A DNA stretch of 64,000 bases from Bdellovibrionales bacterium (GTDB taxonomy: Bacteria; Bdellovibrionota; Bdellovibrionia; Bdellovibrionales; JAGQZY01). Below the pieces are notes generated by a model. It was not told the DNA's origin. It was given only the letters and a program-made list of their open reading frames with translations, and did not search any database. The stretch is from contig CAXRHT010000001.1 in the NCBI GenBank assembly GCA_964230645.1, positions 416,001 through 480,000 of the forward strand, read 5' to 3'. Positions 1-12,309 of the stretch are shown here, in pieces (the first letter of the stretch is position 1; each line of letters opens with the position of its first letter). Made by a program: the position numbers and the translations under genes.

Positions 1-113
1 ATAAGCACTTGGTAAGGAAAGCAGCTACTAGCCTGGGAATTTAACGAAAAAAAACAAACAAGTAGAGAAAGAGAAAATAAGGGTAAAATTGGCATACTCA
101 GTGTCTTATTCAT
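1..113 (-). CDS. Partial CDS (5' end only), secreted protein continuing out of the window
   Basis: Manual translation from ATG at 113 gives MNKTLSMPILPLFSLSLLVCFFSLNSQASSCFPYQVL (signal-peptide-like). GAGGAGGA RBS lies just upstream. Follows the 138..1697 gene on the same strand. Confidence 0.75.
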   Translation of the reverse strand, partial: MNKTLSMPILPLFSLSLLVCFFSLNSQASSCFPYQVL

Positions 114-137: not shown

Positions 138-1697
138 TTATTGAATAAAAGGTCTTACCTGTTTTAAATAAACCTGTCGTTGGCCAGAATCGAGGTCATC
201 CACCTTGAATTCAATATCTAAGGGAACGGTTTGACCTTGATCGGTGGAAAAAATCGGCTGAAAGTGCTCGCTTGCTTTTAGACTTTGAAAAACAAGGTCT
301 TTCACTTCCCCTTCATACATCACCTTATGGGGGTTGGCTGCTGGAAGAATGGTTTCCATATCATCGGCCACATTGGACTGACTGAGATAGTGGATTTGGT
401 AGAGCTCTTTGTTTAAGGGCTCATTGGCATCGTAAAGCACCAAAATCTTCTCTGACTGTACACCGGGCTCTGGGTTGGCGACACTATGCTCATCCCCTCT
501 CTGGGCCTCGATATAAACTCCAGCTCCACTGAATTGGTCATTCTCAGCTAAGTTCGCCGTTACTAAAACTCCATCCACTTCCTCGTTGCTGTAGGATGGA
601 TTGACTTGAACACCCATATAGATTTCGTCGTGAGCAATTCCGAAAGCTTCTCTCTCTTCGTAAGCTCTCAGGTTCCAAACAGAGCCCCAGACTTCTTTTA
701 ATGCCTCTTTTGCCTCTTTGAGTTTTTTCTTTTGTGAGCGCTCCTCGCCATCTTTCATAGGCTTATAAGACTTGGAGGAATAAAGGCCAGCACCATTGAA
801 GTTAGGAAGATCTTCTGCGTTGGTAGAACTTCTAAACTTCATTTTCATTTTTTCGCCACTGGGGGAAACAAAATCATCTAATTTTGCGACCAAAAGGCTT
901 AAAAAATCCTCGTCAATAACAGTCACGTCGGATTCAATAAGTTCCCTGATAACTTTTAATTTCTCATCACGATATTTGGTCGCCGAAACACGTCTCATTA
1001 GGGGGTCACGTAAAAGACCTTTGATGGCATCCTTTAAAATGGGGTTATCCTCAACAAACTGAGCGTAATAGAAAAATGGAATGGCCATTGAGGGGCGAAC
1101 CACTTCTCGCTCAGGGGTGTTCAAAGCGTAAGCGAGTTCAGCGTAGTTAGCCGCTTTCGATCCGACTTTGCTAAAATCCTGCCAACTGAGATCAGGCATC
1201 AAAAAAACTTGCTGTGTGTTGAGATCACTCACTAGCTCAATTTTCTCAGACCCAGCCACCTTCTGTTGATAAAAACTTTTCGCCTGGTTCTCATCGGAGG
1301 CGGAAACCGTGATGTTTCCATCGGCAAGGGCTACTAAATGGATGAAGTCTCCATCCCCAAAGCCTTCAAATATTGGATTCGACATTCCACCTTCAAGGGC
1401 TGAGATATCAACGTTGGGTATTTTTCTAGCGCGCGCTTTTATTTGCACGTGGGACAAAAGGCCCTGATTCATCAAAGTAATGGCACCAGCCACCACTGAC
1501 ATATTAAAAGGCATCTCTGCAAAAACAGGGATAGATATAGGAGAAAGACTTTCGTACTTATCGGACTCCTCAAGTATATCCTCGGCACTTAAGAAAACCA
1601 ATTGCCCATGGGCCTCTCCTGGATTCATAACTCTGGCTTGGCCAAAGACATTGAAAGAAATAAAAAGGGCTAAAACCCCTAAAGCTATTTTGTTCAT
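138..1697 (-). CDS. Secreted PEP-synthase/PPDK-family dikinase-like protein (N-terminal phospho-His swivel domain, C-terminal ATP-grasp nucleotide-binding domain)
   Basis: Signal peptide. QGLLSHVQIKARARKIP matches the swivel-domain SH..AR..IP motif. GSKAANY, FRSSTNAEDLPNFNGAGLY and DIEF...YLKQVRP are PPDK_N motifs. Confidence 0.85.
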   Translation of the reverse strand: MNKIALGVLALFISFNVFGQARVMNPGEAHGQLVFLSAEDILEESDKYESLSPISIPVFAEMPFNMSVVAGAITLMNQGLLSHVQIKARARKIPNVDISALEGGMSNPIFEGFGDGDFIHLVALADGNITVSASDENQAKSFYQQKVAGSEKIELVSDLNTQQVFLMPDLSWQDFSKVGSKAANYAELAYALNTPEREVVRPSMAIPFFYYAQFVEDNPILKDAIKGLLRDPLMRRVSATKYRDEKLKVIRELIESDVTVIDEDFLSLLVAKLDDFVSPSGEKMKMKFRSSTNAEDLPNFNGAGLYSSKSYKPMKDGEERSQKKKLKEAKEALKEVWGSVWNLRAYEEREAFGIAHDEIYMGVQVNPSYSNEEVDGVLVTANLAENDQFSGAGVYIEAQRGDEHSVANPEPGVQSEKILVLYDANEPLNKELYQIHYLSQSNVADDMETILPAANPHKVMYEGEVKDLVFQSLKASEHFQPIFSTDQGQTVPLDIEFKVDDLDSGQRQVYLKQVRPFIQ

Positions 1698-1698
1698 A

Positions 1699-3072
1699 TT
1701 AATTTCCTTTGTTCAAAATGACTGAAACTGAATTTAATGAGGAAGACTTCAACACATCATCACGAAACTGCTGCACTCCAGACTGACCACTGGCTTGGGA
1801 CCAGGCCGTCACTGTACTTAAAAACACATCATCCATTGTCATTGCAGCAACATCGATCACATCGACTAAAGTTGATGAAAGCGCCTCACTGTCACCAGAG
1901 CTCAGTTCGTCGTAAAAATAAGCCCAGTTATCCTCAATGAGAAAACCTTCGATAAATATAAGATTGAGTAAAGTTTGCGCCAATTCAGAGGACTCCACTT
2001 TCTCAAACTTTATAACCTCTTTATTAATAAAGTCTGTGGCACTAACGATTGTCGCTAAGGCCTTGGCTTTCTTGGTCCAGGCGACAGCACTTGTACTTAA
2101 AGCTTTTTTACTTTCCACAGCTGTTTGCGATAGCAGAAAAAGAGTTTTAACACTAACTCCTTGCTCCTCTACTGTTTGCGCCGCACCTACTAGGTCGGTG
2201 AGCCCTGAGGCATTGGCCAATTCTTTAATTTTTCCGGCATCGGCCTGAAAGTACTCGCTTAACATGCGGTGAATTTCCTGCAAATAGGTGTTGCCATTAG
2301 CCGCATACCAGGGGTTTTCTTCCAGATAGATTTCAATCATTGGCAAGACATTTTCTGATAAGTTGTTGTGAATGGCATTACGGATTTTGTAGAGGCCTCT
2401 TACCCGAGAATCAGAAGCCCCCCAGCGATTCACAAAATAATCGTAGGCCACTTTGATCATATCACGGCTTTTTTCAAGAGAAGACGAGTTGGTAATGGGA
2501 CTTTGTTTTGCCAATAGATATACAGGCAAAAATTGGAAGGAATCCTCAACAAAACTCAAATAATAACTGAAATAGTAATTGGCATATTCTTGCTCAAACT
2601 CTGAACCAGCGATCCCTCTTGTATTGAATCCACGAGTGATTCCTGAGTCTGGAAATTTAGATATGTAATATTTCTCAAGCACCCAGTGTTTTACAATTTC
2701 AACAGATTCACTCATCCTGGAGGCTCCCACTGACATAAGAGCCTCATGATCTAAAGAAAATGATTGAGCACCGTCAAAAATCGTCTCGCTCATAAGGTTG
2801 TAGTAATTTGTAGTAAATAGGTTACCGGTATAAAAGCCATGCTCTGTAGCAAGAGTTTCAGCCACCTCGTTTCTATAGGCCGCCTGAAAAAGAAAGTCAC
2901 CAGAAGGAGCGCCTGATAAAACTTTCGAACGCCCTCTTGTCCCTTGTAGATAATTGTAGCCAAAGGGGCCTTTCCTTGTATTTTCAATTTCACTGAAAAT
3001 TGATTCTGGACTTGCAGCTACAGTCGATGTGGCGAGCATTAGAATAAAAGTAAGTACAATTCGATACATCAT
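1699..3072 (-). CDS. Secreted, probably alpha-helical hypothetical protein
   Basis: 457 aa ORF with signal peptide (..STVAA|SP). Stop is 1 nt from the dikinase start, so the two are tightly coupled. No family recognised. Confidence 0.8.
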   Translation of the reverse strand: MMYRIVLTFILMLATSTVAASPESIFSEIENTRKGPFGYNYLQGTRGRSKVLSGAPSGDFLFQAAYRNEVAETLATEHGFYTGNLFTTNYYNLMSETIFDGAQSFSLDHEALMSVGASRMSESVEIVKHWVLEKYYISKFPDSGITRGFNTRGIAGSEFEQEYANYYFSYYLSFVEDSFQFLPVYLLAKQSPITNSSSLEKSRDMIKVAYDYFVNRWGASDSRVRGLYKIRNAIHNNLSENVLPMIEIYLEENPWYAANGNTYLQEIHRMLSEYFQADAGKIKELANASGLTDLVGAAQTVEEQGVSVKTLFLLSQTAVESKKALSTSAVAWTKKAKALATIVSATDFINKEVIKFEKVESSELAQTLLNLIFIEGFLIEDNWAYFYDELSSGDSEALSSTLVDVIDVAAMTMDDVFLSTVTAWSQASGQSGVQQFRDDVLKSSSLNSVSVILNKGN

Positions 3073-3078
3073 ATTTCC

Positions 3079-4917
3079 TTAGTCAATAAGTTCTAGGACT
3101 TCTTGTTTTTCTTGTTCAAAGGCGTCTTTCCCACAGTCCTCACTGTTGGAGGTGGGCGCACAGCCTTTCACACGTCCCATCAAACGAACAAGGCGCATGC
3201 CCTTTGTTGAGTTTCCGCTCGATTGCATCCCAGAGGTCGTAATGGGACTATAAAATTGCACTTTGTCTCTTTCGTAAGTTTGCTCATAAAGCGGGAAAAC
3301 CCCTTGAGCCACAAATGAGGTTTTTACTCTTTTTTCTTTAAGATCCATATAGGAAGGAAAAGAAAGGCTTGGGTCAACGAATTCAAACTGCCCTGAGACA
3401 GAGTTAAATTCAAACACACGATTATCGCCATAGAGTTCTTGATAAAATTCGTATTTATCATCCATTCCAATATTAAGATCCTTTCCATCTCTTTTTGAGA
3501 GGCCACTGGAACCTTGAGTGTCGTAACTGATCATATACTCAACACCAATCACTTCGAGAGTTCCGTCACCATCGATGTCGTAAAGATCAAAATCCTCGGA
3601 ATCGTTTCCAAATTGGAAAACCTGTTTCATTTTGTCGTTTTCAACGGGCATCAAATGCCTCATTTCCCAAACGTGCCCGAGAGCCAACCGCAAGCAGCCG
3701 CTTGAAACTCCTCCCCGTTTTACTGCCCAGAAATGCTCATGTTCAGAGGGAGCATTGAGAAGCTCTTTAATTTCTCTATTAAAGTTTGATCCATAAAAGC
3801 GAACGGCTGGATTATGAAAACCATTGCCGATTCCTTCGAAATCCATCTTGGGAGCCCAGCCATAGTAAGGCTCTTTTCTAATATGATCGACTTCATGATA
3901 GGAGCGATCTAAGAAAGGCCATAAACCCGGAGTTGCAAAACGAGGAATACGATTGCCAAATTTATCTTTGGTAGTACCCTTATAACTCCCTGTCGGATAA
4001 ACCGCAGAAAACTCAGGATAAGTAAGATAACACTGAGAACCCTCGCAGTGGATCGGCTCTCTCCACTCTCCATTAGCCCCTAAAGTTTTAAACTTAAATT
4101 TTTGTTCAGTCAGTGTGGTGAAAAGGCTTAGAGCTTGAGCTTGAAACTCCGCTTCGGCTTCAGAGAGAGCTAGATTAGCCAAAGCTTGCAAATCTTCGAC
4201 AAGCTCGTCTGTCGGCTCCTCGGTATAATTTATTCGCCCCCAAACGAGAGTGTTGATGGCCTGAATAGTCTCCTCACTTCGACGAGTAAGGACTGATTCA
4301 ACAGAGTCTCCGTCGAGAATTTGTGAGAGTGTCTTTTTCCAGCGTGTGAACTCAGCATTGAGATCAAGATTGACAAAGAAAACACGCTCGGTATTAAGTT
4401 GTTTAACGAGTTTTAAGCTCTCTTGATAGAGCTCTTTGTCGTTCAAATTGCCTTGTCTATAGGATTGAGTCAGAGTTTTTATTTGATAAACAGGAGAATC
4501 AATCACGCTTTGAAAATGACTCAGTTGCGGTAGAAGTGAAGCATCTTCAGGATTGATATCCAGGGCAGGACGTTGGCCGTCTTGAGAGGTGGTCATTTCC
4601 TGGTAAAAAGAAGATCTCGCTTCAAGATCAAAAAGATAATCCATAATTGTTTTTTCATCCAGGAGAACACTCACTCGCGTCTGGTTTCCACGTGAAGTCC
4701 GAATGTGAATTCTCTCGGGAGACTGACTTCTTGGAGCAAAGCCTGTGTAAAAACTGGGATAGTAGTGGCTGATTCTTCCTTCTCCACCTTTCCAGCTTGT
4801 ACCCCAGATAAGCAACGAACTGTTGTACTGCTCTAAAGGAGTTTGGCTTTGAGCCCATTGGACGTTAGATAAAATTAGGACAAATAAAAATACCTGTTTT
4901 AGGTAAAACATAGACAC
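3079..4917 (-). CDS. Secreted protein with divergent L,D-transpeptidase (YkuD-like) catalytic motif
   Basis: Signal peptide. GNGFHNP...RGGVSSGCLRL resembles the YkuD H...S(H)GC(I/V)RL motif. Also carries a DIDGDG Ca-binding-type loop. Confidence 0.6.
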   Translation of the reverse strand: MSMFYLKQVFLFVLILSNVQWAQSQTPLEQYNSSLLIWGTSWKGGEGRISHYYPSFYTGFAPRSQSPERIHIRTSRGNQTRVSVLLDEKTIMDYLFDLEARSSFYQEMTTSQDGQRPALDINPEDASLLPQLSHFQSVIDSPVYQIKTLTQSYRQGNLNDKELYQESLKLVKQLNTERVFFVNLDLNAEFTRWKKTLSQILDGDSVESVLTRRSEETIQAINTLVWGRINYTEEPTDELVEDLQALANLALSEAEAEFQAQALSLFTTLTEQKFKFKTLGANGEWREPIHCEGSQCYLTYPEFSAVYPTGSYKGTTKDKFGNRIPRFATPGLWPFLDRSYHEVDHIRKEPYYGWAPKMDFEGIGNGFHNPAVRFYGSNFNREIKELLNAPSEHEHFWAVKRGGVSSGCLRLALGHVWEMRHLMPVENDKMKQVFQFGNDSEDFDLYDIDGDGTLEVIGVEYMISYDTQGSSGLSKRDGKDLNIGMDDKYEFYQELYGDNRVFEFNSVSGQFEFVDPSLSFPSYMDLKEKRVKTSFVAQGVFPLYEQTYERDKVQFYSPITTSGMQSSGNSTKGMRLVRLMGRVKGCAPTSNSEDCGKDAFEQEKQEVLELID

Positions 4918-5103: not shown

Positions 5104-5898
5104 CTACTCAGCTTTTAGAAAGGCCGGCAGAGCTCCAGAAAAATCATTCTTTTCTAAGTAAAGGGACTCTTCAAGACTCTTCTCATATTTTGAAAACGAA
5201 CGGCGATTAAGACCAAAGGTTCGAATCAAATCGGCCATCCAGCAGGGCACTTGCCTACCAGCTTTGAGCTCTAAAATCACAGAAGAGAAGGACTCACCAA
5301 AAACAGAGGTTACGTCGTAGTGACACATCTTTTTAGGATCCGGCTGAACTGTGAAGCCAGGTTCTTTTTGGTAGCAAAGGTCTCTATCAAAAGTCACACG
5401 GGCGTACTCATCCACTCTGGAGAAAAAGGCAAGACGATAATATTGAGTCAGAATTTTAGGTTCGACGTTGAGGATACTAAAGCTATGAAAAAACTTTTGA
5501 AAATTTCCTTCATCAGAGACCTTCAAAAGATCATAGTTTTGCCTTCCGGCAAGGATATCCGCCCATTCTTGAAAGCTTGTTTTCGAACGAAGCTTATCGA
5601 CCATATCACCATGTTTACATTTTTTTTCAAAGAAATAGGGAGGCTGACTGCCATCGCCGTACGAGCGTACTCGTAAATTAAAGCGGTTAAATCTTTTTAC
5701 CTTTTTGTTTTTAAGAAGATCGAAATTGAAGGTATCCAGGTAAAGACTATTAACCTGGTAATAACCATCGGGGGATTTTTTTGAAAAAGGATCTTGTTCG
5801 CAGTAGACTTTGATGTAGTCACAAATGGGTTGAACCATTTCAATGGGGATTGAGTATTTAAGCTCTCGGCGGACAAGACGAGTCTCTCGATCAAACAA
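5104..5898 (-). CDS. VTC-domain (CYTH-like) polyphosphate polymerase domain protein
   Basis: Motifs RRELKY, VNSLYLDT, RFNLRVRSY, FFEKKCK, RVTFD, ILELK and FSKY are typical of bacterial VTC proteins. No signal peptide. Confidence 0.9.
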   Translation of the reverse strand: MFDRETRLVRRELKYSIPIEMVQPICDYIKVYCEQDPFSKKSPDGYYQVNSLYLDTFNFDLLKNKKVKRFNRFNLRVRSYGDGSQPPYFFEKKCKHGDMVDKLRSKTSFQEWADILAGRQNYDLLKVSDEGNFQKFFHSFSILNVEPKILTQYYRLAFFSRVDEYARVTFDRDLCYQKEPGFTVQPDPKKMCHYDVTSVFGESFSSVILELKAGRQVPCWMADLIRTFGLNRRSFSKYEKSLEESLYLEKNDFSGALPAFLKAE

Positions 5899-6019: not shown

Positions 6020-7549
6020 TTAAAGAGCGGAGCAATCAAGAGACTCCATCTGAACGCCATCGCGTGGAAAGTTATCCACGTCGTTAAGGTCAAATTGGAT
6101 CTCTGGACACTGGGCTCTTAATTTTTCGGCCACATTGTGAGTTCTCTCTACAAAACTCTCCAATGTCTTCTCATTAAGGTTTAAGTTCGTGGCCATCCAC
6201 TGATAAATGGGTCCTGCGGCTTGCAGGTCACGATCGAGCTCCATGAGCTTTTCATAGGTTTTTGTCGCCATATGATGAATATCCTCAAGCCAATCCGCTC
6301 TTTCTGGAAAATTGGCGTATTTACCAATCGTCGCTCCAGGGTATCCGCTGTAATCTCTTAGGCCAGCATCGTTATCGTTGAGGAAGGTTCTTTGAATAAG
6401 GACAGGTTCCGAACCAGGCTTAATGTCAGCCACCCAATCTTCCTCGGGTAAAGTAATTCCTGAGGCCGCCATTTCCTCACGACTCATCTCTTCGAATTCG
6501 TCTCTCTTCTCGCGCTTGTCTTTCACTTTGTCGTCGATCGTTTCGTAATTCCAGTACCAACGATAATCGATGTTTCCAACTCGGTCTTGCTGACCAAAAA
6601 TAGAATCAAGAACGATCATTTCTGACATTTCTCTCATCCAAAAAAGCATCTGTAAGGCGGGAACATCCCCTAGGGAATTAGCCATCTCACGAGAGGAAGC
6701 CTTTGCTTTTGCCACACCTTCTTCAACAGCTTCTAAAAGTGGTTTATCACTTCTTAGTGCGATAAAGGGGGCTACGTCATCACGCAACTGCTTGTGCTGA
6801 CCTGTTCCCCAGGAAGCTGTGCGAGTGGAGTTAATTTCAGCTCCGTAGCGCTCTCCTGGCCCCTTGATAAGAACACCATAGATTTTTGCGCCATCGGCGG
6901 TTACAAGCTCTTCTGTGGGTGAGTAATCCTCTGGATTTTGCCCAACGATATCAAGCCATCTCCAACCATTGTGAACCTTTTGACCTGAGCGAGTGTTTGC
7001 TAACCCCACAGGAACCACGTTTTCATAAATATACTGACGGTCTATCTCTCTATAGACAGAGACTGGGACTTTGATCTTCGTATCCAGAAGTCTAGAAACA
7101 TGATAGTAAGCTAACGATGATGGCGAATACGTTCCGCTGGTGCCACCGCCAAGGCTTGAGCTTCCCTGGTTCATAGAAACTTTAAACTTAGCGAGGTTAT
7201 CGACATCCTCCCCCTCGTCTTTTTGCCCGCAGTACTCTGAGCTCATGTACTCCTCTTTACTCATACCACTTTCACTGATTTCACGGACCATTGTGGCAGG
7301 GCTTGTGCTCCAAGTCTTTGGGCAAACCGCAAAATTCGGTGCGTAGATATTAGCGCTACAGAATTCGATTTCGTCTTCTAAATCGTCTTTATCGTAATCT
7401 CCCCCTGGAATTTGAGGCAAAGAACGGCAAACCTCATTCACTCCATTGGGAGAAACATAGGTCATTTCAAAACCGTGTGCTGAAGCTTCTATGGCACCTA
7501 ATAGACTGATTGTTAAAACTGATATTATAAATTTCATCTTATCATCCAT
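6020..7549 (-). CDS. Secreted atypical kinase, Fam20C/Four-jointed/CotH-like
   Basis: Signal peptide. LAKFK (candidate beta3 Lys), LAYYHVSRLLD..VPVSVYRE, EMIVLDSIFGQQDRVGN (catalytic loop; cf. Fam20C DFLMGNMDRHHY) and FLNDNDAG (cf. LDNGRG). Confidence 0.7.
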   Translation of the reverse strand: MDDKMKFIISVLTISLLGAIEASAHGFEMTYVSPNGVNEVCRSLPQIPGGDYDKDDLEDEIEFCSANIYAPNFAVCPKTWSTSPATMVREISESGMSKEEYMSSEYCGQKDEGEDVDNLAKFKVSMNQGSSSLGGGTSGTYSPSSLAYYHVSRLLDTKIKVPVSVYREIDRQYIYENVVPVGLANTRSGQKVHNGWRWLDIVGQNPEDYSPTEELVTADGAKIYGVLIKGPGERYGAEINSTRTASWGTGQHKQLRDDVAPFIALRSDKPLLEAVEEGVAKAKASSREMANSLGDVPALQMLFWMREMSEMIVLDSIFGQQDRVGNIDYRWYWNYETIDDKVKDKREKRDEFEEMSREEMAASGITLPEEDWVADIKPGSEPVLIQRTFLNDNDAGLRDYSGYPGATIGKYANFPERADWLEDIHHMATKTYEKLMELDRDLQAAGPIYQWMATNLNLNEKTLESFVERTHNVAEKLRAQCPEIQFDLNDVDNFPRDGVQMESLDCSAL

Positions 7550-7563
7550 TTGTTAGTGTGAAA

Positions 7564-8223
7564 TTAGTGGCAGATTTGACTACGCTGCTCGGCGGTTAAC
7601 TGAAACTCAGGAAAAGGATTAAATTCGTCGATCTTCTCAAACTGACGACGTCTTCCCTTAGCACCGAGTGAGTCGTAAATATCAATGGCATCCCAGTTGC
7701 TCTTAGCCTGGTCTTTTGAAATTCCACAAAACTGCATTAAAGCCATTTGAGCTAGAGTGTTTGAAGCATGAACTCCGTAATAGCAATGCAAATAAACAGC
7801 CCCTGCAGATCCATTTATAACATCGTTATAAAGATAGCTCATAAGGTTATAAACCCGACTCCCTCCCCCACCGTCACGGGCTTCACCAATGTAAACATAG
7901 TCAAGGGCATTGGATCCACAGCTAACAGAGGTATCAACATCAATGTAAACCGAATAAATTCTGGAGAAGTCATCAGCACACATCTGGTTGGTCATTGAAG
8001 AGCTTAGTAGCGCTCGGCGCCTGTCAGAGCCACCAATATAGAATGCGCCTTTTAAAATCGCTTTGGGACGTGTGTCCCCGGAATTGTAAGAGGACTGACT
8101 AATCTCCGTACTGCTTCCTGGATTATTGAAAATATTCTGAAAATGACTGATTTTGTCTCGAAGGCTTTGGCTGAATGCCAATTGAGAAGATAACAGAATT
8201 GCGAAAAAGATAATTCGGTTCAT
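7564..8223 (-). CDS. Secreted Cys-phosphatase-fold (PTP/DSP-like) protein with atypical active-site loop
   Basis: Signal peptide. VYLHCYYGVHASNTLAQMALMQFCGISKDQA follows the DSP pattern, but CX5R is CX5A. Confidence 0.6.
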   Translation of the reverse strand: MNRIIFFAILLSSQLAFSQSLRDKISHFQNIFNNPGSSTEISQSSYNSGDTRPKAILKGAFYIGGSDRRRALLSSSMTNQMCADDFSRIYSVYIDVDTSVSCGSNALDYVYIGEARDGGGGSRVYNLMSYLYNDVINGSAGAVYLHCYYGVHASNTLAQMALMQFCGISKDQAKSNWDAIDIYDSLGAKGRRRQFEKIDEFNPFPEFQLTAEQRSQICH

Positions 8224-8347: not shown

Positions 8348-9493
8348 CTAAAGGTCGTGCCTTCGGTAGATTATCCTACGAGATGAATCGAGGAAGTGTG
8401 AACTAGGAAACTGACTACATCGTTGACACTTACTTGTATTGCCTGAAGGCATATCAATCACCTCAGGGAACTGACTGTCATCAAGAATTTCGTAATTGTC
8501 AGAGGTCCTTTGCACCAGTGACCAGTTACCAAGGCTATCAAATTCAACAACCAAAAAGGCCTTCGGGCTTCTAGGAAGGCTTGAATTCCTCGAAATATGA
8601 TAGCGAGATCCACTTCCTAAGAGGGGAACAGACACATACTCCGTATGATGATCTCGTCTCCCAGGGTAGTAAACGTGGGAATGTCCACTAAAAAAGACAT
8701 CCACTTTGTGTTTTTCAAAAAGGTCTTCCACCTTTTTTAAAAAGCTCGAATTACCTCGAGACACATATTCCGTTTCTTTTTTAAAAGCAAAAGGCAATAG
8801 AGGCACATGACCATAGATAAATCGCAACTTAGCGTCTTTTTCTTTTGCAAACACTTGTTCCATCCAATTCAAAGTGCTGTCAGACCAGGCTCTCACTGCT
8901 GTATCATCAAGACTGATAAAAAGAGCGGACCCAATGCGGAAAGCGTATTGGAAGGGAAAGTTCTGTTCTACACCTTCAACCATCTTCATATTGGAGGCCA
9001 CAGAAAGAGGGTCTTCTCTTTCCCAAGACTCTTTATAGTGTTTTCGTTCTGTTTGAAAACCTATATGGGCGTCATGATTTCCCGGTGAAGGAAAAACAGG
9101 AATTTCACTTTTAAGCATGGGCCGTGTCACATTGGAGTGAAAAGAATCCCACATTCCTCGGTAGTCCAAACCGCTTTTTTGACCAGCCACCATATCGCCA
9201 GTAGATATTACGAAATCTATTTCCGAATCCCTATCTGTGATGTAGCTAACAGCTCTTTTAACATCTTGCCCATAGGACTTTGAGCCGTAAGATCCGTTCA
9301 TATCGGAAATAATTCCAAAACGATAGTTTTTAACAATGGGATCCGGTTTGTCACCAGGCTCATTGGCATCACCTGGGTCTTGACCATAACCTTGATCACT
9401 TTGATCAGAGCTATTTTGGTCGGATTGATCCGCAGGCTTAGAGTGACTGCAGTGGACGAGACTAAAAAATAATAAAAGAATAAAGATACGCAC
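8348..9493 (-). CDS. Calcineurin-like metallophosphoesterase lipoprotein
   Basis: Lipobox LVHC, acidic low-complexity linker, and motifs ISDMN, GDMV, GNHD, YGH, GHSH. Confidence 0.9.
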   Translation of the reverse strand: MRIFILLLFFSLVHCSHSKPADQSDQNSSDQSDQGYGQDPGDANEPGDKPDPIVKNYRFGIISDMNGSYGSKSYGQDVKRAVSYITDRDSEIDFVISTGDMVAGQKSGLDYRGMWDSFHSNVTRPMLKSEIPVFPSPGNHDAHIGFQTERKHYKESWEREDPLSVASNMKMVEGVEQNFPFQYAFRIGSALFISLDDTAVRAWSDSTLNWMEQVFAKEKDAKLRFIYGHVPLLPFAFKKETEYVSRGNSSFLKKVEDLFEKHKVDVFFSGHSHVYYPGRRDHHTEYVSVPLLGSGSRYHISRNSSLPRSPKAFLVVEFDSLGNWSLVQRTSDNYEILDDSQFPEVIDMPSGNTSKCQRCSQFPSSHFLDSSRRIIYRRHDL

Positions 9494-9588: not shown

Positions 9589-10752
9589 TCAAACTTTAAG
9601 GACTTCAGTAAGATAATTTATATTCTCTTTGTTGAGCTCTCCTTGGAGAAAAAGGATTTTCAAATAATTAGCGTGGATATTGAGTAGAGTCTCTATTTTT
9701 TTAAAACGCAACTTAATGTATTTCACTTCGTCATCAATACTTGTTTCAAGGTTTGAAAGAGAGCTCGAAAACCTTTGCGCATTCTTACTTTTCATAGGGA
9801 TCATTTTGTAGATTTCAAATTTTTCGATAAGCCCTAGGGTTTCAGCTTTCACCTGTGTCATCTCATCTTGTTTCTGCCATTTTTCCTGACGTATTTGAAT
9901 TTGATCTTGTAGATAATCGGTTTCTGCTTGTTTAAGTTCGGTGCTATCGGAGAGAAAAGGAACCCTTAAGGACAATTGCAGCTTATGATCTTCCAAACGG
10001 CGGATATCTCTTTCTCGACTCATTTGTACAAACTTGATAACCTGCCAAGATTCAGACTTTTTCTTTTTGAATTCCATCTCAGCCAATTCTTTTTTTTCGT
10101 TCTCAATTTTAAAATCAATTTCTTTGGCAGCTTTTAAAGATTGCTTGAGTCTCTCAGGATCTGCCAATTTTAAATCTTTTAAGCTTTCAAGAATTTCCCT
10201 GACCTTGTCATCTTTTTTAATATTATCAAAAACGCTTTTATATTGAGTTTCCATCTCAGCAAAGAAACCAAGATTTTCAATAAATCCATTAAGATCCACT
10301 TCACTATTTTGGGAAATGGCAGAGATTCTCTTTCGAGCTTTTTCAAAAAGCTTTTGATTTTGCTTTAAAACTTCATGATTTTTTAAAACACCCCACAGAA
10401 TTAAAAGCTTATTGTAGGCATTCAAACGATTTAAATTTTCCTGGTTACCTTGGGTCAACTTTAAGATTTTATTGTGTTTCTCAGTCAGTCGTACTTCGTT
10501 GGCTAGACCGAAAATTGGCTTTAAACCAAACCGGACCGATTGGTCACTGAAGACACCATCCTCATCGGTCTCAATTCTCACCTCTGTTTCATCAAGAAAT
10601 GATAAACCTGGATTCCATGCCGATTTGGGAGATACTCTTTTGTTTTTTATCTCGGATTCCACCCACTGAACTATTGGGTCCTCTTTTGCCTCGCAAGTTA
10701 AGGCGGACTGCAGGAAGACTAAGAATAGAATCAAGGCAGAAAGACTTCTCAC
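9589..10752 (-). CDS. TolC-like outer membrane efflux protein (divergent)
   Basis: Signal peptide, then two repeats of short beta-hairpin-like segments followed by long coiled coils. Overlaps the stop of the HlyD gene. Confidence 0.55.
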   Translation of the reverse strand: MRSLSALILFLVFLQSALTCEAKEDPIVQWVESEIKNKRVSPKSAWNPGLSFLDETEVRIETDEDGVFSDQSVRFGLKPIFGLANEVRLTEKHNKILKLTQGNQENLNRLNAYNKLLILWGVLKNHEVLKQNQKLFEKARKRISAISQNSEVDLNGFIENLGFFAEMETQYKSVFDNIKKDDKVREILESLKDLKLADPERLKQSLKAAKEIDFKIENEKKELAEMEFKKKKSESWQVIKFVQMSRERDIRRLEDHKLQLSLRVPFLSDSTELKQAETDYLQDQIQIRQEKWQKQDEMTQVKAETLGLIEKFEIYKMIPMKSKNAQRFSSSLSNLETSIDDEVKYIKLRFKKIETLLNIHANYLKILFLQGELNKENINYLTEVLKV

Positions 10753-11618
10753 TGATTGCCCTCAAAGGAAACCATAACCTTTTCTCCCAGATAGAAATCA
10801 TTGCCTTTTGGGAGAGAAACTTTAATTTCTCGGCCGTATATTCTCATACTCGGATCTTTTTGAAATCTTTCTGGAAGCTCAGTCAGCATCGAACCGATGG
10901 AAACGATTTCTCCTTTCACCTGATAGTCTCTAGAGATCGATTTAATGTTTGAAGCTCGGTTCTGTGTTAATGATGCGAAACTAAAGGATTCAGGGATATA
11001 GGAACGCACGAGAGTCGGTTTTAAATGAAAGATCTCTAGAAGCGGCTGAAAAGGCGGAATGGTTTCTGAGGCACTCACCTGTAATTCGCCCGCAAGGCCA
11101 TCAATCGGTGAAACCACTTCCAGACTTTTTTCCTCGGAAGCCAAGGCTTTTTTATTTTCCACAAAAGTAAGAAATCGCATCTCTAGAGGACTTAGACTTT
11201 GGTTCTTTTTTCTCTTTTCTAAGAATACGACCCACTTGTCTTTATCCCACCTTCGGCCGGAGTGGATATTGAGCTCCATCAGTGCCGTTTGCAGTTCTGT
11301 CTCATTGGCATATTGGCGAGAGGCCAAATCCTCGCGCTTCAAACGAAAAAGAGGATCTCCTTTGGAGACCAGTTGTCCTGACTCGACCAATATTTCATCG
11401 ACCACCACAGAGTCTTTAAAATTGATGGTAAAACCTCTGGCCTCGGTCACTCCTGGAATTCGATTTCCTTGGCTCAAATCATAATGAAGTATCAGATAAA
11501 TCAAACCGGAGGCCAAAACTAGTCCCACTAGCAGGAAATAGTTGGCGACAATAAAATCCCAGAAAGGATTGTTGCGACTTGTTTTGAAATTGATTTTTTT
11601 GTTACTTTCCTCGTTCAC
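10749..11618 (-). CDS. HlyD-family membrane fusion (periplasmic adaptor) protein
   Basis: One N-terminal TM, lipoyl half-motifs VDEILVESGQLVSKGDPLF and VVSPIDG, hairpin helix, C-terminal barrel ending GEKVMV. Confidence 0.85.
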   Translation of the reverse strand: MNEESNKKINFKTSRNNPFWDFIVANYFLLVGLVLASGLIYLILHYDLSQGNRIPGVTEARGFTINFKDSVVVDEILVESGQLVSKGDPLFRLKREDLASRQYANETELQTALMELNIHSGRRWDKDKWVVFLEKRKKNQSLSPLEMRFLTFVENKKALASEEKSLEVVSPIDGLAGELQVSASETIPPFQPLLEIFHLKPTLVRSYIPESFSFASLTQNRASNIKSISRDYQVKGEIVSIGSMLTELPERFQKDPSMRIYGREIKVSLPKGNDFYLGEKVMVSFEGNQ

Positions 11619-11628
11619 TTGCCAACCC

Positions 11629-12309
11629 TTAAATATCCGTACTACTTTGCTGCACCATCAACTGCAGTCCCTCTAAATTTTCAATGGCTTGAAGTTCCTG
11701 GATCAATTGTGCCTGCTGCTTTTGATTTTTAAGTTTTACCTGATAGGAGTAATCCACTCTCTGCCCCTGGGCGAGATCCCTCAACGTTACTAGAGCGAAT
11801 TTTCGGCAGTTTTTTGAGAGAATCCCCGCAACACTCTCTTGGTTGTTACCTTTAGAAGGAATATTGAACCTTAACAATCCATCAAACTGTGTGCTTTGAG
11901 AAAGAGGCGTTTTTGATAGGATAAAGATCACAGCGCAAAAACAAAGAACGCCTGAGATGGTTATTGAGTAGGCGAAAACTCCACAAGAAATACCAAGAGC
12001 CAAACTGGCAAAAAGGAAAAACATGTCTTTAGGGTCTTTTAAATTTGAGCGGAAACGAAGAATGGAAAAGGCTCCCATCATACCGATACCACGAGCCAGA
12101 CTTCCATCAATGGCCATCATTGCGATCGCCGAAACGATCGGACTTAGAACCAAGGACTGAATAAAGTTTTTTGAATAACTCAAACCCTCGTAGGTAAACA
12201 CGTAGGTTAAAGCCAGAAGACTTCCAACAATGAATGCAAAACAGACACCCTGTAGAGACGTCCAGAAGCTTGTGTTCATCGTCGCATAATTGAATGCATC
12301 AATACCCAT
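11629..12309 (-). CDS. DUF4956 family membrane protein
   Basis: Several TM helices, SLARGIGMMGAFSILRFRSNLKDPKDMFFLF signature, and an ACT-like C-terminal domain. Confidence 0.9.
   Translation of the reverse strand: MGIDAFNYATMNTSFWTSLQGVCFAFIVGSLLALTYVFTYEGLSYSKNFIQSLVLSPIVSAIAMMAIDGSLARGIGMMGAFSILRFRSNLKDPKDMFFLFASLALGISCGVFAYSITISGVLCFCAVIFILSKTPLSQSTQFDGLLRFNIPSKGNNQESVAGILSKNCRKFALVTLRDLAQGQRVDYSYQVKLKNQKQQAQLIQELQAIENLEGLQLMVQQSSTDI

Follow-up and report, generated by a model that had tools for sequence, protein, structure and literature searches.

A 64,000-nucleotide (nt) stretch of the genome of a Bdellovibrionales bacterium (assembly GCA_964230645.1, contig CAXRHT010000001.1, positions 416,001–480,000 of the forward strand; hereafter, the window) contains two neighbouring minus-strand genes that very probably encode the halves of a single enzyme, a dikinase that is made as one protein in related bacteria and whose halves would here be exported separately and re-associate. 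As judged from sequence comparisons, the pair is distantly related to glucan-water dikinase (GWD), by which plants phosphorylate starch, and is not itself a GWD. The module is real and uncharacterised; split dikinases were known before, but they are cut at a different place. From the nature of the neighbouring genes we tentatively favour that this predicted exported, two-gene relative of GWD relays phosphate through a histidine, His83, onto a glycan of the cell wall, peptidoglycan being the foremost candidate.

Two neighbouring genes as halves of one dikinase

The pair belongs to a set of three tightly packed open reading frames (ORFs) on the minus strand, of 612 amino acids (aa; 3079–4917), 457 aa (1699–3072) and 519 aa (138–1697), separated by 6 and 1 nt. 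A sequence-only reading of the window had placed the last two ORFs 1 nt apart, which our coordinates confirm (138..1697 and 1699..3072, both on the minus strand), and had described in the 519-aa product a signal peptide, a swivel motif around His83 (LLSH83VQIKARARKIP), a C-terminal ATP-grasp domain and no pyruvate-binding barrel, all of which our analysis bore out.

In this dikinase half, the signal peptide spans residues ~1–19, the phospho-His swivel domain ~22–150 and the ATP-grasp domain ~160–519 (nt 141..1220, minus strand), and the sole Pfam domain is PPDK_N (PF01326; residues 177–517, E 7e-18). A homologue search produced 888 matches among 7,996 candidates, and we aligned 120 listed matches with the query (121 rows); the small number of relatives that bear a name are Bdellovibrionota. 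Among these matches, His83 (nt 1449..1451, minus strand), the predicted phospho-carrier, is kept in 120 of the 121 rows, with a gap in the remaining one, and E61, located 22 residues before it, is 93% conserved. The His segment also aligns His-to-His, if weakly (i-E 0.02), with the swivel domain of phosphoenolpyruvate (PEP) synthase in a family profile. After removal of 11 fragments or near-duplicates, K181, R289, S308 and E496 were invariant in all 110 rows; in a profile alignment to 5hv6, they correspond to K22, R117, T136 and E297 of rifampin phosphotransferase (RPH), which bind nucleotide phosphates and Mg according to mutagenesis or structure (PMC4844700). The AlphaFold model (pLDDT 94) is filled by a small N-terminal alpha/beta domain and a C-terminal ATP-grasp-like domain, with no space for a pyruvate-binding barrel. 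Residues 160–519 of this model align to the ATP-grasp domains of RPH, a comparison suggested by the sequence-only reading, and of PEP synthase (Z 29, root-mean-square deviation 2.7–2.9 Å over ~300 residues), and Foldseek also gave swivel-fold matches, such as 3t05 and 2fm4. A profile of the fused family, which detects PEP synthase elsewhere, found no other PPDK_N-type gene in the source genome, where canonical PPDK was not searched separately.

PEP synthase and PPDK share with the pair the PF01326 ATP-grasp, with its phosphate-binding Lys, Arg, Thr/Ser and Glu, and the phospho-His swivel motif; unlike the pair, however, they show the reverse domain order and contain a pyruvate barrel, and the pair scores 60 bits against a cut-off of 598. 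We thus rejected this identity on domain order and the lack of a barrel, and database names such as 'pyruvate, water dikinase' for relatives of the dikinase half are over-annotations.

The partner half (1699..3072, minus strand) is a mostly helical protein of 457 aa with its own signal peptide, modelled as nearly all helix (pLDDT 95); its start may be the second ATG (3069), as in the 456-aa database record. Signal peptides were called by a simple rule of hydrophobicity and charge, which 100 of 121 sequences passed for the dikinase and 57 of 76 for the partner, versus 6 of 605 internal windows, and most of the sequences that failed it are fragments or rows where the anchor motif failed.

Among 80 genome loci kept from 580, the partner profile matches 16: as the adjacent upstream gene in six, and as the N-terminal half of a fusion of 948–1042 aa in ten. 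Two further loci are cut by contig ends, and the other 62 contain unrelated N-terminal domains. Likewise, of 301 evenly sampled Bdellovibrionota genomes, 13 contain the partner (nine split, four fused), always directly ahead of the dikinase part. A frameshift artefact was ruled out, given that each half has its own signal peptide and that the split recurs in nine sampled genomes. In a quick, midpoint-rooted tree of split and fused forms (48 rows, with four others dropped by a motif filter), the ten split rows form one clade (support 81); its sister group consists of fused forms from Gammaproteobacteria (100), and it is itself nested within the fused forms. The simplest history that can be read from these sequences would be a fission, with gain of a new signal peptide by the second half; alternatively, the genes may have fused again in the gammaproteobacterial sister group.

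Modelling of the complex supports that both halves bind each other, with a score of 0.72 versus 0.00 for the best control, agreement between runs in at least 88% of contacts and a partner pLDDT of at least 87. Of 157 solved pairs, 116 reach the mark used for this score, as do 2 of 215 mismatched ones; with the alignments used, these figures hold only roughly. The modelled interface brings together residues 230–246 of the dikinase half with residues 379–385 (nt 1918..1938, minus strand) and 404–415 of the partner. Of 74 split rows, 71 retain D381 and 73 retain N382 of this interface, whereas the 21 fused rows do not conserve them, the pattern to be expected from a contact that became stronger once the halves had separated. 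Our searches of the PDB found no like complex.

In all, the earlier proposal that the partner supplies the acceptor domain of a split dikinase is supported by the existence of fused homologues (10 of the 80 loci and 4 of the 13 partner-bearing genomes), by the adjacency or fusion of both parts in every one of those 13 genomes, by the complex model and by a remote homology of the partner to the central domain of GWD, described below.

The 62 loci with other N-terminal domains (within L017–L081) encode a large family of His plus ATP-grasp proteins that bear export or lipoprotein leaders and whose N-terminal domain, of ~200 aa, is unrelated. No match to the partner or to GWD was obtained with this domain (56 rows, most of them from Bacteroidota and Myxococcota), which therefore constitutes a separate acceptor type. 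An unannotated gene for a 350-aa lipoprotein clusters with this family in 27 of the loci, and VTC/DUF4956-like genes in four.

Relationship with glucan-water dikinases and other dikinases

The potato enzyme StGWD1 contains, besides two CBM45 modules, a His domain and an ATP-grasp domain, a central domain of 444 residues that is all-helical (PDB 9HA9/9QVI; PMC13553574). The order helical domain, His swivel and ATP-grasp is the same in our pair, as seen in the fused forms, the gene order and the models. That source reports the central domain as having no clear structural equivalent in the PDB, and passages in two recent papers treat GWD as eukaryotic (PMC13666283; 10.64898/2026.09.25.754361).

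For comparison, we used a set of algal GWDs from a motif scan of metagenome contigs, which yielded 80 loci with DNA, 24 of them with long uninterrupted ORFs and 16 distinct; Pfam assigned all five tested to GWD1, and one aligns to 9HA9 at E 1e-131. Using hhalign, a profile built for the helical domain from 47 rows, with the window partner at their head, matched the 16 algal central domains with P 82.6% and E 9.6e-6 over 262 columns, versus P 0.2% for the reversed control and P 6.2% and E 0.006 for the best of 12 block shuffles. The match involves partner residues ~199–457, and places R203, H235-N236 and D438-D439-x-x-K442 on conserved GWD positions. H235-N236 (nt 2365..2370, minus strand) is invariant in 74 of 74 partner rows, with the His also present in 21 of 21 fused rows, and aligns with a conserved HNN of the GWD central domain. 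The second motif (nt 1747..1761, minus strand; Asp in 74 of 74 rows and Lys or Arg also in 74) aligns with the E-E-x-x-R of GWD, whose residues E900, E901 and R904 in StGWD1 are turned towards H992 and have been proposed to assist in the transfer of phosphate (PMC13553574). The spacing from the acid motif to the His is also similar, at 87–104 residues for 21 of the 22 fused rows (and 128 for the other) versus 91 from E901 in potato GWD1; likewise, E971 precedes H992 by 21 residues in the latter (PMC13553574), as E61 precedes His83 by 22. In consequence, we consider the partner to be probably homologous, if remotely, to the central domain of GWD.

The other two domains are also related to those of GWD. 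A His-domain profile of the fused relatives matched algal GWD with P 93% and E 2.7e-7 over 101 columns, while the profile of the close family alone was not significant (P 0.2%). The Pfam model of the GWD His domain, PF22973, scores 10.9 bits, below its cut-off of 27; this is its sole match in the genome and covers His83, and relatives reach E 0.006. The ATP-grasp domains have in common an N-x-E-D-L...G-A-G-L motif, although E-D-L...GAGL precedes W-x-S in the pair, as in PEP synthase, and follows it in algal GWD1. With this permuted motif masked, a tree of the ATP-grasp domain (257 columns; 9 GWD, 22 exported bacterial and 5 PEP synthase/RPH-like rows) grouped GWD with the exported family (94.5/98), apart from the PEP synthase/RPH-like rows and with GWD as sister (86.7/92); five outgroups, with neither PWD nor PPDK, are nevertheless too few for any claim on the origin of GWD. 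A search of the ESM Atlas with a fused relative led to a mixed cluster of bacterial and plant proteins, with PF22973 in 12% of its members at score 0.84, which we take as a lead only, and a homologue search aimed at GWDs gave five bacterial proteins from 32 candidates.

Fold searches with the partner model, which speak neither for nor against the GWD match, retrieved only generic helical bundles (best E 0.22 in Foldseek; best Z 10.4, over 83 residues, in VIA). Entries 9HA9 and 9QVI, both contained in the sequence copy of the PDB, were absent among the 50 fold matches listed, with the whole 457-residue model as query and their presence in the structure libraries being uncertain. The ESM Atlas gave no usable match for the partner, and neither GWD nor transpeptidases came up when PDB sequences were searched with profiles from the alignments of the partner, the fused forms and the upstream gene.

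The pair differs from GWD1 in that it is bacterial and split, with a signal peptide on each half, has neither CBM45 nor Ig domains and is surrounded by genes of cell-wall type. Pfam found no CBM45/PF23166 or CBM20 match on either half or on the upstream protein, whereas PF23166 was present in all five algal GWDs scanned. Therefore, lacking starch-binding modules and with PF22973 below its cut-off, the pair is not a GWD, even if it is predicted to work like one.

RPH-type two-component dikinases are cytoplasmic enzymes, and the pair differs from RPH-type dikinases in its signal peptides and in its acceptor domain. RPH and the two-component phenolic dikinases HpeHI, CreHI and PpsAB resemble it in the fold of the ATP-grasp domain (Z 24–29 to 5hv1 and 9goj) and in the phosphate-binding residues. 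A dikinase divided over two proteins was thus already known in HpeHI, but HpeHI, CreHI and PpsAB are cut between their ATP-grasp domain on one side and the acceptor plus swivel domains on the other, whereas the cut is here between the acceptor domain and the swivel plus ATP-grasp domains (PMC12167813). The RPH-type two-component arrangement does not hold, therefore, for our pair, with its swivel domain on the ATP-grasp chain. Our literature searches listed no paper on this family of exported bacterial dikinases; a pangenome paper on Bdellovibrionota does not contain the word 'dikinase' (PMC11656739), and a preprint about giant genes notes that some giant proteins from predatory bacteria have PPDK_N domains (10.1101/2023.11.21.568195).

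Cell-wall-type and polyphosphate-related neighbours

The third core gene (3079..4917, minus strand), 6 nt from the partner gene, encodes a 612-aa protein with a signal peptide that, by its motifs, is an L,D-transpeptidase (YkuD)-like cysteine enzyme. Among 29 distinct loci (32 examined, with three duplicates), it lies directly upstream in 22; from the other seven, three had no upstream sequence, three contained a fused form without a gene of this type and one contained a lone partner. The gene order is near-fixed, with gaps of at most 42 nt between the upstream gene and the helical domain, and the transpeptidase-like gene occurs in the same 13 of 301 genomes as the partner, plus one weak match. 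Residues H368, S405, G407, C408 and R410 are invariant in 19 of 19 members, reproducing the invariant His and the S-x-G-C-x-R motif of YkuD; the protein differs from YkuD in its length, its longer His–Cys spacing and its sub-cut-off score. A stand-alone relative of 469 aa (L155:8569-9978; profile E 1.7e-14) has the normal spacing and matches YkuD at E 0.002, and we found no dikinase near it.

A second gene of cell-wall type, encoding a 320-aa protein similar to penicillin-binding proteins (PBPs) and beta-lactamases, with invariant SxxK, SxN and KTG motifs, is present in 8 of the 9 split-form genomes, in none of the 4 fused-form genomes and in one other. Extra PBP-like copies exist in the two genomes (G236 and G298) that contain, respectively, a lone copy of the partner gene and of the upstream gene. 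The two distant fused relatives examined are each located beside two PBP-like (PF13354) genes, and one of them also beside a TLC ATP/ADP transporter. Such a transporter is not supported as a source of fuel for the split/fused Bdellovibrionota branch, because PF03219 was found in none of the 13 module genomes (one weak match, 23 genomes searched). Bdellovibrio is known to modify chemically the peptidoglycan of its prey (PMC4876506); fused forms exist also outside Bdellovibrionota and, therefore, predation is not required.

The 5' end of a phosphodiester-glycosidase (NAGPA)-like gene (1..113, minus strand; PF09992, E 6e-10) lies 24 nt past the dikinase gene and continues beyond the window. Outside the window, at most 9 kb downstream, there are genes for an AmpG-like permease, identified by eye (L001:7049-8386), and for a member of the peptidyl-arginine deiminase family (L001:14114-15208), neither of which is kept with the module in other genomes. 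In the gammaproteobacterial loci L008, L009 and L010, the fused dikinase gene is followed by a gene for a Pycsar-effector-like membrane protein (PF18967, E 3.5e-19, L008:11684-12358).

Upstream of the three core genes, the window contains a gene for a VTC-domain protein of the polyphosphate polymerase family (5104..5898, minus strand; PF09359, E 7e-41) and three genes that recur with VTC (9589..12309, minus strand), encoding an unassigned 387-aa exported protein, an HlyD-type adaptor and a DUF4956 membrane protein. Eukaryotic VTC couples polyphosphate synthesis to its transit through the membrane (PMC9911596), and the four genes may form a cassette for polyphosphate export. All 9 split-form genomes have VTC, which is missing from the 4 fused-form ones and present in 42 of the 288 others, and it is within ~10 kb of the module in 6 of the 9 split-form genomes; in the family of the source genome, VTC is present in the two other module-bearing genomes and in none of the four without the module. 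Fisher tests overstate this link because the genomes are kin, and we did not rely on them.

Three more minus-strand genes in this region compose an island of phosphate-handling type. One, inside the VTC cluster, encodes a calcineurin-like metallophosphoesterase with a lipoprotein-like leader (8348-9493). Another (6020-7549) encodes a 509-aa protein with a signal peptide and no match in Pfam, NCBIfam or PDB, whose D-R-x-G-N and D-N-D segments we take to be reminiscent of atypical secreted kinases such as Fam20C; among the examined loci, it has a homologue only in a genome of the same genus. The third (7564-8223) encodes a protein of 219 aa that has a signal peptide and contains the segment H-C-x-x-G-V-H, presumably resembling the loop of tyrosine/dual-specificity phosphatases without its Arg; near the dikinase of gammaproteobacterial locus L010 there is a weak homologue of it (E 6e-6).

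Proposed activity, alternatives and significance

We propose that both halves are exported separately and re-associate through the ATP-grasp and helical domains, for which our confidence is high, the fusion being observed and the binding modelled. The ATP-grasp domain would then cleave a nucleotide triphosphate and phosphorylate His83, as we expect with good confidence from the residues observed and by analogy with the chemistry of RPH and GWD. The His domain would next swing to the helical partner, where D438/K442 and H235/N236 may position the acceptor hydroxyl. Plausibly, although with some reserve, this acceptor could be peptidoglycan or else a muropeptide that the transpeptidase-like and PBP-like enzymes process, belonging either to the cell's own wall or to that of the prey. 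A cell-wall acceptor is our best guess because neighbours with peptidoglycan-enzyme motifs appear in two branches of the family; indeed, the third gene and the context of cell-wall enzymes and polyphosphate, which the sequence-only reading had not noted, point away from an alpha-glucan. The weakest step is the donor outside the cytoplasm, which might be ATP, taken from the prey or else regenerated with polyphosphate that the VTC cassette exports, and we hold the link of polyphosphate to donor supply as possible but doubtful.

Several observations weigh against a peptidoglycan-directed, GWD-like dikinase. The homology of the partner to GWD is remote and partial: its first 180 residues do not align, the split-form partner profile alone gives P 0.4% and E 0.17, if in the same C-terminal register, and profile-to-sequence searches between partner and GWD were not significant (best E 0.07). 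As for the upstream enzyme, YkuD (PF03734) matches only 7 of 19 members, below the Pfam cut-off (best E 0.023), and not the window protein; a 17-column profile match (P 47%) was to YkuD fragments picked by the same motif, and the His–Cys spacing is 40 versus ~20. The association is not absolute either, as fused loci L023, L027 and L039 have no transpeptidase-like gene, G236 contains a second, lone copy of the partner gene (L108:8320-9768) and G298 a lone copy of the upstream gene (L154:259-2082, at a contig end). Moreover, we found no PBP-like gene in the source genome, with the NAGPA-like gene lying downstream instead. The link with VTC may reflect shared ancestry, since the split forms are one clade and VTC is common in families f2 (19 of 35) and f29 (5 of 6), and VTC is absent from the five gammaproteobacterial fused-form genomes. 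Lastly, the ATP-binding residues of the dikinase are normal, so there is no sign of direct use of polyphosphate.

Other activities would account for part of these data. The dikinase might phosphorylate a carboxyl or carbonyl, for example in a stem peptide, for its capture by the cysteine or serine neighbour into a cross-link or conjugate, thereby acting as an extracytoplasmic ATP-driven ligase. The tightest companion is indeed a cysteine enzyme with a transpeptidase motif, and the His-swivel relatives PigC and RedH are annotated as ligases (NCBIfam matches to the ATP-grasp of relatives); however, the acceptor domain resembles that of a glycan kinase and not that of the RPH type, and the cysteine enzyme is missing from three fused loci. 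We consider this activation unlikely. We consider quite unlikely a glycan other than peptidoglycan, such as prey glycogen, periplasmic glucans or a surface polysaccharide. The homology to the central, His and ATP-grasp domains of GWD, an enzyme that phosphorylates alpha-glucans (PMC13553574), agrees with such a substrate, but neither half has a carbohydrate-binding module in Pfam, no glycoside hydrolase is annotated among the main neighbour families recurring across genera that were scanned, and the conserved neighbours carry motifs of peptidoglycan enzymes.

A role in phosphate or energy handling outside the cytoplasm, by interconversion of ATP, AMP and polyphosphate or phosphorylation of a small metabolite, would render the cell-wall neighbours incidental. 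It would fit with the VTC, metallophosphoesterase and NAGPA-like genes in the window cluster and with the in vitro behaviour of GWD, which mostly hydrolyses ATP to AMP (PMC13553574), but it is distinctly improbable, as fused-form genomes lack VTC and keep the transpeptidase-like gene, and phosphatase neighbours are sporadic or limited to the source genus. The near-fixed gene order and the short gaps could also suit a protein as the acceptor, for instance the 612-aa neighbour, whose activity phosphorylation would turn on or off; this is very improbable, since among the His-swivel dikinases characterised in the literature consulted none acts on a protein. The kinase that regulates PPDK in plants has a different fold.

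A broader scenario, which we regard as speculative and rather improbable, is that an exported bacterial sister lineage of the plant starch dikinases phosphorylates peptidoglycan, being split, coupled to a transpeptidase-like enzyme and fuelled outside the cytoplasm through VTC and polyphosphate in predatory Bdellovibrionota, and using an ATP/ADP transporter in another branch. If so, plant GWD would descend from a bacterial cell-wall kinase that was fitted with starch-binding modules.

Our favoured reading, the relay of phosphate onto the cell wall by an exported split dikinase, would, if true, add an undescribed covalent modification to the bacterial wall, for we found in the literature no description of an enzymatic addition of phosphate of this kind, and would imply phosphoryl transfer in a compartment that is usually taken to lack ATP. 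The central domain of GWD (PMC13553574) would also gain a bacterial counterpart. This makes testable two questions, namely which residues serve the second phosphate transfer of GWD, with D/E-D/E-x-x-K/R and HN as shared candidates, and where GWD originated. The natural split additionally offers two compact proteins of ~50 kDa, which should crystallise more easily than potato GWD, whose full-length form resisted crystallisation.

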